A stretch of 64,000 nucleotides of DNA, taken from sequence record MK234886; one strand, 5' to 3'. Within the stretch, counting starts at the first letter, position 1, and each line of letters opens with the position of its first letter. Below the pieces are notes generated by a model, which had not been told where the DNA came from, did not search any database, and saw only the letters and a list, made by a program, of their open reading frames with translations. Source of the stretch: Escherichia phage AnYang. Made by a program: the position numbers and the translations under genes. Positions 4,857-54,806 of this stretch are shown here, in pieces.

Positions 4857-6545
<1,689 letters not shown>

Positions 6546-48746: not shown

Positions 48747-48938
48747 TTATATTACGAAAATAGCTTTATCACCATTTGCATCAGTGACTTCATAGGTATC
48801 TTCGTTGTAAAGTGGAATAATCCAAGTCACACCATCACCAGCAATAATATGGATAGCTTCTTGGTCTTTTGATACGATTTCATATTCTTCGAATAATTCG
48901 AATACAGAAATCTTAGAGCCCGTACACATTGCACTCAT
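48747..48938 (-). CDS. hypothetical protein
   Basis: 63-aa ORF. Confidence 0.4.
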   Translation of the reverse strand: MSAMCTGSKISVFELFEEYEIVSKDQEAIHIIAGDGVTWIIPLYNEDTYEVTDANGDKAIFVI

Positions 48939-49134
48939 ATTGTTCCCTTCTTTTAATCAGTTGACGATGAGCCTTTTTAAGTTTGCGAAGCTGACGTTTA
49001 GTTGGCCGCGCAACATAAGCTTGAGTAGTTACTCGTCCAAAAACACCGTACTTAGGTGAAGGAGAATCGATAAAGACTTCCCACTGACAAGAGTAACTAT
49101 ACACTGCTTTAGAGAATTGAGTTAAGACAAACAT
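48913..49134 (-). CDS. hypothetical basic-tailed protein (paralog of 49922-50161)
   Basis: 73 aa; shares WEV and ARPTKRQLRKLKK block with the other copy. Confidence 0.4.
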   Translation of the reverse strand: MFVLTQFSKAVYSYSCQWEVFIDSPSPKYGVFGRVTTQAYVARPTKRQLRKLKKAHRQLIKRREQYECNVYGL

Positions 49135-49135
49135 A

Positions 49136-49576
49136 TTAACCTCGATTCATAAAGGCATTAAAAATCTGGTCATCGATTGAATAAACCGGGGCCTCCAGAA
49201 TTTTCAACAGACTATTTTTGATGTACTTGCTAGGGATATCCATATTAACGCCGTCATTCAATTCGTTGTCCGGGAGGATGTCTTTAAATTCAAATCCATC
49301 AAACTCAACCTTGTCGGGAATACCTTCAGCGAAAAAATAAACCAATTGGTGCATTGCATTGCACGAAAATAATTTAGACCTCACCGCAATAAGTTCTTGC
49401 CAATGGTTTAATTCTCTGTTAAGAAGTTTATGAGCCATTGTAATTCTATCATCACTATCAACAAGAAAATAACCTAGGTATTGGTGGTCGTCGCTCCAAT
49501 ACATCCGGTATGCTTGTGCATTTGGATTTTTACAACGAAGTTTTTTGATAACTAAATTTCTGTTAATCTTATTCAC
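49136..49576 (-). CDS. hypothetical protein
   Basis: 146-aa ORF. Confidence 0.5.
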   Translation of the reverse strand: MNKINRNLVIKKLRCKNPNAQAYRMYWSDDHQYLGYFLVDSDDRITMAHKLLNRELNHWQELIAVRSKLFSCNAMHQLVYFFAEGIPDKVEFDGFEFKDILPDNELNDGVNMDIPSKYIKNSLLKILEAPVYSIDDQIFNAFMNRG

Positions 49577-49921: not shown

Positions 49922-50161
49922 CTATTTCAGCGAATCTTCCAAATAAATTTTACGGAATTTACGTTTTGTCTGACGAATCTGACGCTTAGTAGGCTTCACA
50001 GGAAAATCGAAGAACTCTACGTATTCTTGTTCATAATCGTTGTGACCGACTGAAAGAACCAGTTCCCAGTTGCTTACAGTACGTTGGATAAACATATTAT
50101 GCTTACCAAAGGATTTATTCCAAAAAGAACTAGGAGTTGGTTTCATTAATACAATATTCAT
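49922..50161 (-). CDS. hypothetical basic-tailed protein (paralog of 48913-49134)
   Basis: 79 aa; VKPTKRQIRQTKRKFRK block. Confidence 0.45.
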   Translation of the reverse strand: MNIVLMKPTPSSFWNKSFGKHNMFIQRTVSNWELVLSVGHNDYEQEYVEFFDFPVKPTKRQIRQTKRKFRKIYLEDSLK

Positions 50162-50302
50162 TTATTCCTCGCCTTCATGTTTATGGGCAATTTCTTCGAA
50201 TTCGCTGTCACAGTCTAAACAGGTTGCGTTATCCCAAGCATCAAATACCGCTTGGTCTTCGCAGACCGAACAACCACATACTACACATTCAAATTCTTCC
50301 AT
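50162..50302 (-). CDS. small Cys-rich zinc-ribbon-like protein
   Basis: Manual 46-aa ORF MEEFECVVCGCSVCEDQAVFDAWDNATCLDCDSEFEEIAHKHEGEE. Confidence 0.4.
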   Translation of the reverse strand: MEEFECVVCGCSVCEDQAVFDAWDNATCLDCDSEFEEIAHKHEGEE

Positions 50303-50506
50303 TTAGATTTCCTCAATGCGGGCATCATATTCAAAAACTTTATTGTCATCAACAAAGGCTTTCACCAGCGCATTATTCACTTCTGCATACTGCACTGTAA
50401 CCCATTCAATCATATTTTGGTCACTAACATCCAGAACGGTTTCTTTGGTAAACATATTACCATTTTCAAACCAACCAATAAACACTACTTTCTCTAATTT
50501 AGGCAT
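50303..50506 (-). CDS. hypothetical protein
   Basis: 67-aa ORF. Confidence 0.45.
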   Translation of the reverse strand: MPKLEKVVFIGWFENGNMFTKETVLDVSDQNMIEWVTVQYAEVNNALVKAFVDDNKVFEYDARIEEI

Positions 50507-50836
50507 TTAGATTTCCTCACAGAAAGCCCATTCGGCATGATAAACCGTAGCGCCTTTAGTATCATTTAAACAAACCACATCTACCGGAGCAATTACACGA
50601 TAAAGACGGGGTTCTCCTCCCACTGAACGAGCTGCACGTCCAGCATAAATCTTAGCCAAACCGATATCTTCAGTAAAGAACACACGATTTAGGTTTTTCT
50701 TACGACCGGTTTCAGACAAAACTCCTGTTTCCTCAGGAGGACAAAGCATATTACCGATATTAGCAACACTACAACTTCCATGATAATACACTTTATATTC
50801 TGCTTTACAGTCGATGGTTTTCATTTTGTTCTCCAA
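50507..50836 (-). CDS. hypothetical protein with possible H-Y-E ADP-ribosyltransferase-like motifs
   Basis: 109 aa; VYYHGS, FFTEDIGLAKIYAG and YHAEW resemble the HGS / aromatic / E elements of PARP-type folds; speculative; first gene after the gp41 terminator and a promoter motif. Confidence 0.5.
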   Translation of the reverse strand: MENKMKTIDCKAEYKVYYHGSCSVANIGNMLCPPEETGVLSETGRKKNLNRVFFTEDIGLAKIYAGRAARSVGGEPRLYRVIAPVDVVCLNDTKGATVYHAEWAFCEEI

Positions 50837-50848
50837 GTTGATAGGTCT

Positions 50849-50877
50849 ATAGTATCACGCCTACAGGAGATGTAAAC
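50849..50877 (-). promoter_or_regulatory. T4-type early promoter
   Basis: GTTTAC-N17-TACTATAGACCTATCAACTTGGAGAAC; directly after the gp41 terminator. Confidence 0.6.
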
Positions 50878-50887
50878 CCTTAAAAAC

Positions 50888-50907
50888 AAAAAAGGAGCCG
50901 AAGCTCC
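50888..50907 (-). terminator. intrinsic terminator after gene 41
   Basis: GGAGC-UUCG-GCUCC followed by UUUUUU, immediately after the gp41 stop. Confidence 0.65.
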
Positions 50908-52347
50908 TTAAAATTTGATAGATGCGGCTAAATCGTCCAAATCACTTCTATTAACACGCGTCTGTCGATTGACCTCGGCTTGACGATTCATCTCACCTGT
51001 AGCCTCACGAACAGTGTTCACTGGACCTGGATTGGAATCATCTTCAACTTCGTACCAACGTTGATTTCCTTTCTTAACACCAATCTTAAATTTGTTGTAG
51101 TAGCTCTTATCACCATAACGAGATTTAAGCTGCTTAACCATCTGCATACCCATTTGGGCAAACTCTTCTGTCTCGACCACACCTAACATGAAGTCTGCAG
51201 TATGTGCAATACCAAAGGATTCGGCAATATCAGCCATATCGATTTCGGCTGCAACGTTCGCACCACGAGTAGTCTGGGCTGCAGTCCACAACAATAATTT
51301 CTTTTCTACTGCAAGTCCACGTAGTTCTTCGGCTACCATCTTAATCAATCCGTAACTGTTTTCAGAGAAAACTTTCGTACGAGACGATGCACAGATGGCC
51401 AAGTAGTCGACGATAACGACCTGTGGGACAAAGTTTTGTTTGAGCTTATATTCGTTTAATAATGCACGGAATGTATCGGCATTAGCACCACCAGTAGGGT
51501 ACTGTTTAATCTTTAAACGTCCTAAGGTAGCAGTCGAACGCCATTTATCCATCTTAGCTTTATATTCAGGCCATGATACGTGACCATCATCGATATCATC
51601 CAGTGACACATCCAGAAGGTTGGCATCGATACGCTTAGCACATACTTCCTCTGCCATCTCCATGGAGATATAAAGAACATCGTAACCAGATTGAAGGTAA
51701 TCAGCAGCCAATGAACACAGACCAAGAGACTTACCTACGTTTGTTCCTGCCAACAATACGTTTTCAGTACCAAACTCGGCACCACCTTTAGTAATCTTAT
51801 TCAGAATATTAAGACGGAACGGAACCTTACGTGCTTTATCGGAATAACTTTTGAATCGTTCTTCATAGTCATCCATCCAGTCATGACCTAATTCAGAATC
51901 GAAACAAATCGATAATGCATCACGCATGATATCTGGAATAGCGCCAATACCTGGAAGTTTTCTATTTTGTTGCTCAACCGGAAGGTCTGCATTAGTTTGG
52001 ATTTCAATGATTTTTGAAGTTGCATTATACATCGCTGCTTTCTGAACGTATTTCTCCGTCTCTTTAACCAACCATTCTTGGTCTTCAGGTCCAGCATTCA
52101 GTGAGCTTAAAAGCTCTTTAGCTCCTTGATGTTCGACTTCTGAAAGCGTGCTGTTATCTAATGCAATGCTCAATGCGTTCTTAGAAGGCACTGCATTATA
52201 TTCATTGACGTGTTTTTTAATTTCTTTGAAAAGGGTCTTTGCAGGACCCTGGTCAAAATAAGAATCATTCATATAAGGCCAGACCTTAGTGAAATAATCA
52301 CTATTGCCTAGCAGTTGAGCCAAAATAGTTTCTACCACTTCCACCAC
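50908..52347 (-). CDS. 41: replicative DNA helicase gp41 (DnaB family)
   Basis: 479 aa; size and synteny as T4 gp41. Confidence 0.9.
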   Translation of the reverse strand: MVEVVETILAQLLGNSDYFTKVWPYMNDSYFDQGPAKTLFKEIKKHVNEYNAVPSKNALSIALDNSTLSEVEHQGAKELLSSLNAGPEDQEWLVKETEKYVQKAAMYNATSKIIEIQTNADLPVEQQNRKLPGIGAIPDIMRDALSICFDSELGHDWMDDYEERFKSYSDKARKVPFRLNILNKITKGGAEFGTENVLLAGTNVGKSLGLCSLAADYLQSGYDVLYISMEMAEEVCAKRIDANLLDVSLDDIDDGHVSWPEYKAKMDKWRSTATLGRLKIKQYPTGGANADTFRALLNEYKLKQNFVPQVVIVDYLAICASSRTKVFSENSYGLIKMVAEELRGLAVEKKLLLWTAAQTTRGANVAAEIDMADIAESFGIAHTADFMLGVVETEEFAQMGMQMVKQLKSRYGDKSYYNKFKIGVKKGNQRWYEVEDDSNPGPVNTVREATGEMNRQAEVNRQTRVNRSDLDDLAASIKF

Positions 52348-53912: not shown

Positions 53913-54806
53913 TTAAAGGACCACGTCCTCATAACTTGGCATTTCGTGCTCAGAATGGATGTGGGCACCGAAATAAATGAATTCAGCCAGTCCAGGATGG
54001 AATACTAAACCAGGATTCTCATGATAAATGATATGAGGTCTTGATTTCAGAATCTGGTAATATTCAACCTTACTCGGTTTGAATTTAATAATCTCTACAT
54101 CAGGACGATAGTCTTCACGTTTAAATGAATCATTCGGATCGGTGATATAAAGACGAGCACCTTCAGCCGCAGCTTGGTCTACAACTCTTTCGAATTGATA
54201 ACACTTATCAGAGATACGGAACGGATGGAAAATACCATCAATTTTAATAGGCGCTAGACCTTCAGAGTAACGCTCAATTACTGCGGGATTAATTACCTTT
54301 TGGTCTACAAAAATCTTATCAGAGGACGCACCTCGTGACACCAGGACGTCTTTCTGACATTGATTCAGGACTGTAGTATAAATCGAACGTTCAACTGAAG
54401 ACACGTCGATATCAATGAACTCATCAATATAATAACGAGGAACTTCAGGGTCCATTGTAATGTTAAAGTTGAATTGTACAGTCTGAGTGCCATCATAACC
54501 TGTGATATCGGTTACTAATCCTGAGCAGTCATAGTATTCGATTAATGAATCAACGACGAACTCGTTTTCAGACCAAAAATGTTTACGGGTTTCATAAGCA
54601 TTTTCTTTATACCAAAGCGGCACAAAATTCAGTTCAGGAAACAATTCAATACATTCTTTGATATCGCTCGAATTTCTAGGATAAGCCAGATAATCACCTG
54701 GGCGAGCACGGTTTAAATGGAGTTGAAAATTGCCGTCCTTAAGGACGGCATATTCACCTGTTTCGTAACTACGCATACTGAAAATAGGAACGATAAATAG
54801 ACTCAT
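53913..54806 (-). CDS. hypothetical protein in the beta-gt slot (candidate DNA sugar transferase)
   Basis: 297-aa ORF, 4-nt overlap with the hydroxymethylase gene; no motif recognised; functional guess from position only. Confidence 0.6.
   Translation of the reverse strand: MSLFIVPIFSMRSYETGEYAVLKDGNFQLHLNRARPGDYLAYPRNSSDIKECIELFPELNFVPLWYKENAYETRKHFWSENEFVVDSLIEYYDCSGLVTDITGYDGTQTVQFNFNITMDPEVPRYYIDEFIDIDVSSVERSIYTTVLNQCQKDVLVSRGASSDKIFVDQKVINPAVIERYSEGLAPIKIDGIFHPFRISDKCYQFERVVDQAAAEGARLYITDPNDSFKREDYRPDVEIIKFKPSKVEYYQILKSRPHIIYHENPGLVFHPGLAEFIYFGAHIHSEHEMPSYEDVVL

Follow-up and report, generated by a model that had tools for sequence, protein, structure and literature searches.

Escherichia phage AnYang (sequence record MK234886) is a T4-type phage of the Dhakavirus (JS98-like) kind. 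We analysed a 64,000-nucleotide stretch of its genome, here called the window, and found that a small gene directly upstream of dmd encodes a predicted minimal ADP-ribosyltransferase (ART) fold homologous to Arr. We refer to it as the ART gene and to its 105-residue product as the ART protein. The protein is probably an early host-modifying effector, and with moderate confidence we favour an early-expressed mono-ART that uses nicotinamide adenine dinucleotide (NAD+).

50507..50824, minus strand: coding sequence of the 105-aa protein, a predicted minimal Arr-like ART-fold protein; stop codon at 50507-50509

Host takeover by ADP-ribosylation is a textbook feature of T4, which uses Alt, ModA and ModB for this purpose. 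An extra mini-ART, unrelated to these three enzymes, is found in many relatives of T4, RB69 and JS98 among them. It has escaped experimental study because T4 itself appears to lack the gene. Finding the target of an ART of about 95 residues that has no canonical catalytic acid would show what such an ART can do.

The ART protein is predicted to be a minimal homologue of Arr

An AlphaFold2 model of the ART protein, built on an alignment of 54 homologues (the close set), reached a predicted local distance difference test score of 89.5 and a predicted template modelling (TM) score of 0.80. By its fold matches, the model is predicted to have the split β-sheet and NAD+ cleft by which the ART superfamily is recognized. 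An earlier description of the window, made from the letters without database searches (the sequence-only reading), had proposed a Foldseek comparison with ART folds as a check. An ART-like fold was indeed predicted, and the top match in the PDB was Arr (9iaf; TM score 0.61 over 103 columns, probability 1.00). When BFVD was searched, the best non-orthologous match was a phage protein of 94 aa that carries the annotation 'Rifampin ADP-ribosyl transferase' (E 3e-8).

Sequence profiles lead to the same family. Searching 1.84 billion representative proteins with a profile, we obtained 248 relatives, and 105 full-length domain matches were aligned with the window protein to give a wide set of 106. 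Using hhalign, we matched this wide family to 113 Arr sequences with 96.8% probability (E 2.2e-10, 75 columns). The Arr-3 query sequence is 100% identical to plasmid arr-3 genes. Among 54 multidomain relatives, 28 matched Pfam Arr-ms at E ≤ 1e-4 (best 1.8e-9), and those that were checked individually scored 27.5-31.5 bits against a cut-off of 25. Arr-ms was matched only over profile positions 1 to 59-67 of 99, its first two thirds, and by hhalign the ART protein ends at about residue 118 of the 150 in Arr-3. These data indicate that the ART protein is a minimal ART-fold homologue of Arr.

The predicted NAD+ pocket is conserved, while the catalytic acid is not

Four segments of the protein are discussed below:

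50774..50788, minus strand: codons for Y13-Y14-H15-G16-S17, predicted strand-1 HG[ST] NAD+-binding motif (conservation; aligns to Arr FYHGT)
50690..50716, minus strand: codons for S37-E38-T39-G40-R41-K42-K43-N44-L45, family-specific acidic/basic loop (conservation; aligns to Arr-3 residues 40-48)
50639..50680, minus strand: codons for F49-F50-T51...A57...Y60-A61-G62, strand 2 and helix, predicted nicotinamide pocket (conservation; hhalign)
50528..50542, minus strand: codons for Y95-H96-A97-E98-W99, the YHAEW motif, only partly conserved in T4-like phages and not family-wide

Residues H15, G16, P30, E38, R41, K43, N44, L45, F49, T51, A57, Y60, R63, G69, G70, V77 and G91 are invariant in the close set (n = 54). 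In the wide set (n = 106), H15 and G16 have a frequency of 1.00, as does T or S at position 17. The values are 0.94, 0.92 and 0.90 for P29, P30 and T33, and 0.98, 0.97, 0.85 and 0.80 for E38, R41, K43 and N44. Around strand 2 they are 0.98 for F49, 0.97 for T51, 0.99 for A57 and Y60, and 0.98 for A61 and for R or K at 63. Toward the C terminus, G69 reaches 0.98, G70 0.95, G91 0.92 and A100 0.90. Two motifs singled out by the sequence-only reading therefore hold up in close and distant homologues: VYYHGS, through H15, G16 and S/T17, and the aromatic-rich FFTEDIGLAKIYAG, through F49, T51, A57, Y60 and A61. Judged by conservation, VYYHGS and FFT...A..YAG are genuine family signatures that would form the predicted NAD+ pocket.

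The hhalign alignment places H15 on the Arr His, F49 on the Tyr of Arr IYFS (Tyr49 of MsArr) and A57 on an Arr Ala (Ala57 of MsArr). From the Arr alignment and known spacing, we take the PARP1 equivalents to be H862 for H15, Y896 for F49, S904 for A57 and Y907 for Y60. The spacing from A57 to Y60 (+3) and to F49 (-8) is the same as that of S904 to Y907 and Y896. On the floor of this nicotinamide pocket, MsArr Ala57 takes the place of the Ser found in PARP (bioRxiv 10.1101/2025.02.20.639278).

The SE-x-GRKKN loop aligns by hhalign with the Val32-His46 loop of MsArr, the equivalent of the Arr/PARP 'D-loop' over the ADP part. In an Arr co-crystal, this D-loop touches the ligand in the adenosine site (bioRxiv 10.1101/2025.02.20.639278). 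We infer from the alignment that E38, R41 and K43 help to bind the ADP part of NAD+.

The third catalytic position gives a different picture. The sequence-only reading had taken the Glu of YHAEW as catalytic, and this assignment fails: E98 is E, S, D, A, N, K or Q even among T4-like phages. As family-wide catalytic residues we rejected E98, H96 and E103 on their low frequencies in the wide set (0.07, 0.18 and 0.13, respectively). D88 reaches 0.29, and position 84 is E at 0.52, with V in the window protein. A conserved Glu, Asp or Gln on strand 5, the hallmark of the H-Y-[EDQ] clade, was not found in the wide set, where the stretch aligned to Arr FEDD (the Asp84 region) is variable. The first Tyr of the clade, on strand 2, is Phe in 98% of the wide set and Tyr in 0.02. 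The second, expected about 11 residues further on to stack on nicotinamide, is Y60, which is kept at 0.99. The aromatic character of the F49 position is thereby retained and the hydroxyl of the clade Tyr is lost.

Because there is no conserved acid at the third position, the alignments indicate that the ART protein is not an H-Y-E enzyme in the strict sense. The sequence-only reading had seen in it a possible signature of that class, the type of PARP and diphtheria toxin. The ART fold, the His motif and the aromatic motif of that proposal stand. The triad does not, since E98 is variable and the first Tyr is Phe, and the nearest relative is Arr (H-Y-D) rather than PARP or diphtheria toxin.

The ART gene is under purifying selection and widespread in phages

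The open reading frame (ORF) is a real gene. It is a homologue of RB69 ORF040c and JS98 orf34, and its product matches PHROG 2110 (function unknown) from end to end (E 1.5e-60). The 608-bp region around it is 96-98% identical to phages 04086, C6 and JS98. Pairwise ratios of nonsynonymous to synonymous substitution rates (dN/dS) against relatives are 0.02-0.2, showing strong purifying selection. Two terminator-like hairpins inside the gene (50739-50722 and 50623-50606) were taken as chance, because the coding region there is under this selection.

The sequence-only reading had described a 109-aa ORF at 50507-50836. The location and minus strand were borne out, and the start was corrected. An ATG at 50824 (MKTIDCK...) is common to all 54 aligned homologues and gives 105 aa, consistent with the JS98 annotation of 318 nt. 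The TTG at 50836, which would give the 109-aa form, was rejected as a start: it falls within the Shine-Dalgarno sequence, with the predicted start of transcription about 6 nt away.

By tblastn, the gene is present in at least 608 phage records, among them phages of Escherichia, Klebsiella, Acinetobacter, Aeromonas, Enterobacter and Vibrio. When compared with the copy in Acinetobacter phage AM101, the ART protein is 73% identical, while gp41 and gp61 of the same pair are 51-52% identical. Similar values were obtained for the Acinetobacter phage loci L002, L035, L036, L038 and L046 (68-75% for the ART protein, 46-58% for gp41 and gp61). The ART protein is thus more conserved than the helicase and primase, which reflects either tight constraint or movement between phages. 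Depending on the phage, the gene occupies the 41-dmd interval, a 41-61 interval that has no dmd, the hoc-24 interval, or a site close to hoc and rnlB. This implies several moves at the least.

About half of the relatives from the profile search are domains within larger proteins of up to 3,924 aa. Partner domains in the 54 multidomain relatives include ART-PolyVal (8), NUDIX (3) and DUF7178 (3), and, in single cases, lambda-type portal, minor-tail/tape-measure, CHAP, GNAT, Toprim, ddrB-ParB, LPD23 and 2H phosphoesterase domains. Such 'polyvalent proteins' of phages and conjugative elements are thought to be delivered along with DNA (PMC5512222). The mini-ART domain thus also appears as a cargo module in virion-delivered giant proteins. 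The single 2H case is a 954-aa protein (P0186) that joins a lambda-type portal, an Arr-like mini-ART and a 2H (2'-5' RNA ligase superfamily) phosphoesterase, a combination that recalls, by analogy, Tpt1 plus cyclic phosphodiesterase chemistry.

Few copies were found in cellular genomes. A domain-alignment scan with a single pattern, covering one genome for each of 185,579 prokaryotic species, returned only three loci. At one of these (L070, positions 4965-5282), in Flagellimonas marina assembly NZ_JBHSCL010000010.1, a T4-like ART copy stands beside an Rnl2-type RNA ligase on a 178-kb contig. This contig looks like a T4-like phage genome (RB43/Xman type) inside the assembly, not like the site of a bacterial gene. 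With three loci, one of them on a T4-like phage contig, the family looks essentially viral; this is suggestive, as absence from cells hinges on the limited sensitivity of the search.

The ART gene heads the predicted early transcription unit of dmd

The following features surround the gene:

50908..52347, minus strand: gene 41, replicative helicase, upstream neighbour (66% identity to T4 gp41; JS98 annotation)
50882..50909, minus strand: intrinsic terminator 3' of gene 41, AAGGAGC-TTCG-GCTCCTT plus T run (scan; hairpin kept in relatives)
50849..50876, minus strand: predicted T4-early-type sigma-70 promoter, GTTTACA (-35), 16-nt spacer, TG-extended TACTAT (-10) (consensus scan)
50831..50834, minus strand: Shine-Dalgarno GGAG, 6 nt 5' of the ATG (read from the sequence; GGAGA in relatives)
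50303..50506, minus strand: dmd, antitoxin against RnlA/LsoA (Pfam Dmd 78.4 bits; 60% identity to T4 Dmd)

Read along the minus strand, the genes are uvsX, 40, 41, the ART gene, dmd, a 46-aa ORF, 61.4, sp, a 146-aa ORF, two small ORFs, 61.1 and 61. The terminator hairpin itself spans 50909-50892 and is followed by the T run. Hairpin and promoter are both kept upstream of the ART gene even where its product has diverged to about 80% identity. The ATG of dmd begins at the first base after the ART stop codon, and the two genes are co-transcribed.

As the sequence-only reading had stated, the gene directly follows the gp41 stop and hairpin, a position that T4 does not have: there, 41 is followed by dmd after a 58-bp gap with no gene in it, so that the slot of the ART gene is empty. 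The same reading had called the early promoter dedicated to this gene, and here we differ. The T4 gap holds a like promoter (GTTTACA...TATAGT) before dmd. The predicted promoter, which would function early judging by its consensus, is therefore the ancestral early promoter of dmd, with the ART gene lying between it and dmd at the head of the dmd early unit.

The pairing with dmd is lineage-specific

Iyer, Burroughs, Anantharaman and Aravind described a 'p0068-like' ART of the H-Y-[EDQ] clade with Dmd as its antitoxin (Viruses 14:1977, 2022; PMC9503650). They predicted this ART directly upstream of dmd in T4-like phages of Escherichia, Shigella and Salmonella and speculated on RNA substrates for it (PMC9503650). 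The window locus fits this description, with the ART gene directly upstream of dmd in an enterobacterial T4-like phage, and the family studied here is most likely the p0068-like family, the identity being one of locus context. A literature search for 'p0068' returned unrelated papers only, and the HIDEN-SEQ and DarTG1 counter-defence papers concern genes other than the ART gene. Some GenBank records already name the protein 'putative ADP-ribosyl transferase'. The ART prediction is therefore not new as a sequence observation.

In the published proposal, the ART would be the toxin of a phage-borne type II toxin-antitoxin pair and the adjacent Dmd its antitoxin. This is in keeping with the abutting, co-transcribed genes and with the recurrence of the arrangement in 11 loci. 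We surveyed the first ORF 3' of the ART gene in 66 loci. Dmd was the downstream neighbour in 11 of these, and the remainder fell into at least 26 unrelated clusters, including a small membrane protein (RB43/RB16-like), gp30.6 (Aeromonas phages), the 46-aa Cys-rich ORF (four phages) and many singletons. A conserved two-gene linkage was thus not found. Phages of Acinetobacter, Aeromonas and Citrobacter carry the ART gene without an adjacent dmd, T4 carries dmd without the ART gene, and Dmd already has an established target in RnlA/LsoA. The tight spacing means little, because abutting or overlapping genes are usual in these genomes. Insertion into the variable 41-61 accessory region is a simpler reading. 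These data indicate that the pairing is a lineage-specific juxtaposition in this region and not a conserved module, and we consider the toxin-antitoxin proposal improbable. The target of the mini-ART would also bear on it.

Other genes of the region

The 46-aa ORF (50162-50302, minus strand) lies between dmd and 61.4. It is acidic and rich in Cys, with a CxxC...C..C...CxxC pattern that may form a zinc ribbon, and no Pfam family matches it. T4 has no counterpart, its dmd lying directly against 61.4. Four other phage loci have the ORF directly 3' of the ART gene, in the place of dmd.

The 146-aa ORF (49136-49576, minus strand) occupies the slot of T4 gene 61.2 (AdfA, anti-DarT factor). Only the last 14 residues are shared with T4 gp61.2, at 100% identity, and the Pfam AdfA match is confined to positions 198-211. 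Recombination at the end of the gene appears to have put an unrelated gene in the place of AdfA. The 41-61 region also encodes two paralogous DUF7279 proteins, gp61.4 (49922-50161, minus strand) and a 73-aa ORF (48913-49134, minus strand), with 68-70 bits each. Outside it, a 297-aa ORF like RB69 orf047c (53913-54806, minus strand; no Pfam match) lies downstream of uvsX, where T4 has segA and the beta-glucosyltransferase. A role in DNA modification is possible for it.

Proposed function and alternatives

In the mechanism we propose, the gene would be switched on directly upon infection by the early promoter that in T4 serves dmd, and its product would be a free-standing minimal ART domain, about 95 residues in its core, without the C-terminal extension of Arr. 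NAD+ would be held in a pocket of H15-G16-S17, F49/F50, A57 and Y60, with the E38/R41/K43/N44 loop over its ADP moiety. ADP-ribose would then be passed to an acceptor held by the C-terminal β-hairpin (residues 82-103). This hairpin is conserved within T4-like phages and different in other branches of the family, and we therefore take it as the putative acceptor-recognition face.

The acceptor would most likely be a conserved host macromolecule or a nucleic-acid end, modified in early host takeover or counter-defence by analogy with T4 Alt, ModA and ModB. We infer this from conservation above that of the replication proteins across Escherichia, Acinetobacter and Aeromonas phages, together with the virion-delivered relatives. 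The very high conservation from host to host points to an acceptor that is itself conserved, not to a rapidly evolving defence protein.

Several observations weigh against the proposed mono-ART. The window protein alone matches Pfam Arr-ms below threshold (E 0.026, 15.1 bits; cut-off 25) and scores 12.9 bits against the NCBIfam rifampin_ARR equivalog (NF033144), which has a cut-off of 130. Arr-ms activity has been reported to need His19, Tyr49 and Asp84 (PMC13246000). Two of these three residues are lost here, with Tyr49 replaced by Phe in 98% and no conserved acid at or near Asp84. Literature searches for experimental work on the ART protein (activity, NAD+ binding or target) found none. The missing acid is by itself no argument against activity, because H-Y-I/L/Y PARPs and Tpt1 are active without an acidic residue. 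Variation of the motif as H-Y-E/I/L/Y has also been noted (bioRxiv 10.1101/2025.02.20.639278).

The sequence-only reading had allowed that its pattern might be coincidental. A chance resemblance, with no ART at all, would account for the sub-threshold single-sequence Pfam match. It would also fit the PDB sequence searches, which returned nothing meaningful whether the query was the protein, the family profile or a distant relative (gamma-glutamyl hydrolase at E 0.12 was taken as chance). The fold, the profile-profile match and the transitive Pfam evidence through the multidomain relatives are independent and concordant, and go beyond what chance would give, marginal though the single-sequence match is. 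Coincidence is therefore highly improbable.

At the other extreme, the protein could be a true Arr that gives the infected host rifamycin resistance, Arr being the closest family both by sequence and by Foldseek. This is effectively refuted by a score of one tenth of the equivalog cut-off, a profile match confined to the first two thirds, the absence of the C-terminal 30-45 residues of Arr, the lack of conservation at Asp84 and the retention of only the His of the triad.

If the protein binds and does not catalyse, it could be a ligand binder for NAD+ or ADP-ribose that soaks up immune signals made from NAD+ like a sponge, serves as a decoy for them, or blocks a host ART or NADase by competition. 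The invariant pocket residues would suit such a role, as would the lack of conservation in what Arr needs for catalysis (the Tyr hydroxyl and Asp84) and the very small size, small phage sponge proteins being known. Against this stand the active ARTs without an acidic residue named above, the position of the domain beside other enzymes in polyvalent proteins, and the strong conservation of the acceptor-side hairpin in T4-like phages, which fits substrate recognition. We regard a purely binding role as unlikely.

A Tpt1/KptA-like enzyme would transfer ADP-ribose onto an RNA phosphate (2'-PO4 or a 5'- or 3'-phosphate end) in RNA repair or marking during infection. As in Tpt1, there is no conserved catalytic acid; the GR-KKN loop is basic and invariant, fusions to a 2H domain (one relative) and to NUDIX (three relatives) occur, the neighbour dmd counters an RNase toxin, and RNA substrates have been considered speculatively by Iyer et al. 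N-terminal to strand 1 there are only 12 residues, and the winged-helix RNA lobe that carries the Arg-His of the Tpt1 tetrad is lacking. In addition, the sequence profiles point to Arr and not Tpt1, the 2H fusion is a single case, and the basic loop aligns to the Arr D-loop at the NAD+ site, not to the acceptor site. We judge this reading doubtful, and note that it overlaps the favoured mono-ART as one possible chemistry.

A more specific form of the mono-ART, which we offer tentatively, is a mini-ART derived from Arr and without the Glu. Through a substrate-assisted or Tpt1-like mechanism, it would attach ADP-ribose either to a bacterial target that is universally conserved or to a phosphate or hydroxyl of a nucleic acid. 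Equally tentatively, it would rank among the most conserved accessory proteins of T4-like phages and supply a fourth early ART activity of T-even-type phages. Possibly it counters an RNA-targeting or NAD+-dependent defence.

Comparison with known systems

The ART protein shares with Arr (PF12120; 2HW2/9IAF) a minimal ART core, the FYHG[ST] strand, the [IV]-[YF]-F-[ST] strand 2, a strand 1-2 loop of equal length (about 30 residues) and the 'GG/GRG...Y.V.P.G' strand 3. It differs in being about 45 residues shorter: the region that closes the rifampin cleft of Arr is absent by both hhalign and the Pfam profile. Tyr49 and Asp84 of Arr are not retained, and the invariant SE-GRKKN loop is the family's own. 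The ART family is also phage-encoded and early-expressed, or embedded in polyvalent proteins.

When compared with the NAD+ lobe of Tpt1/KptA, the ART protein lacks the N-terminal RNA lobe and the R-H-R-R tetrad and has a strand 1-2 loop twice as long. These differences indicate that it is not a Tpt1. AcrIF11, a phage anti-CRISPR ART (6KYF), has no detectable sequence relationship to it and comes from another phage group. The target logic of AcrIF11 is strain-specific, whereas the ART protein is unusually conserved across hosts; PADLOC defence-system models gave no match to it. Relatives of the ART protein occur in the same giant proteins as ART-PolyVal (PF18760) and other effector modules of phage polyvalent proteins, often side by side with ART-PolyVal (8 of 54), but ART-PolyVal is a distinct family (one marginal match, E 0.19) and the ART gene here is stand-alone.

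T4 Alt, ModA and ModB offer a parallel, as phage ARTs that act on host proteins or RNA as soon as infection begins. They are members of the R-S-E clade, have a much greater size and show no sequence relationship to the ART protein, and Alt is packaged in the virion.

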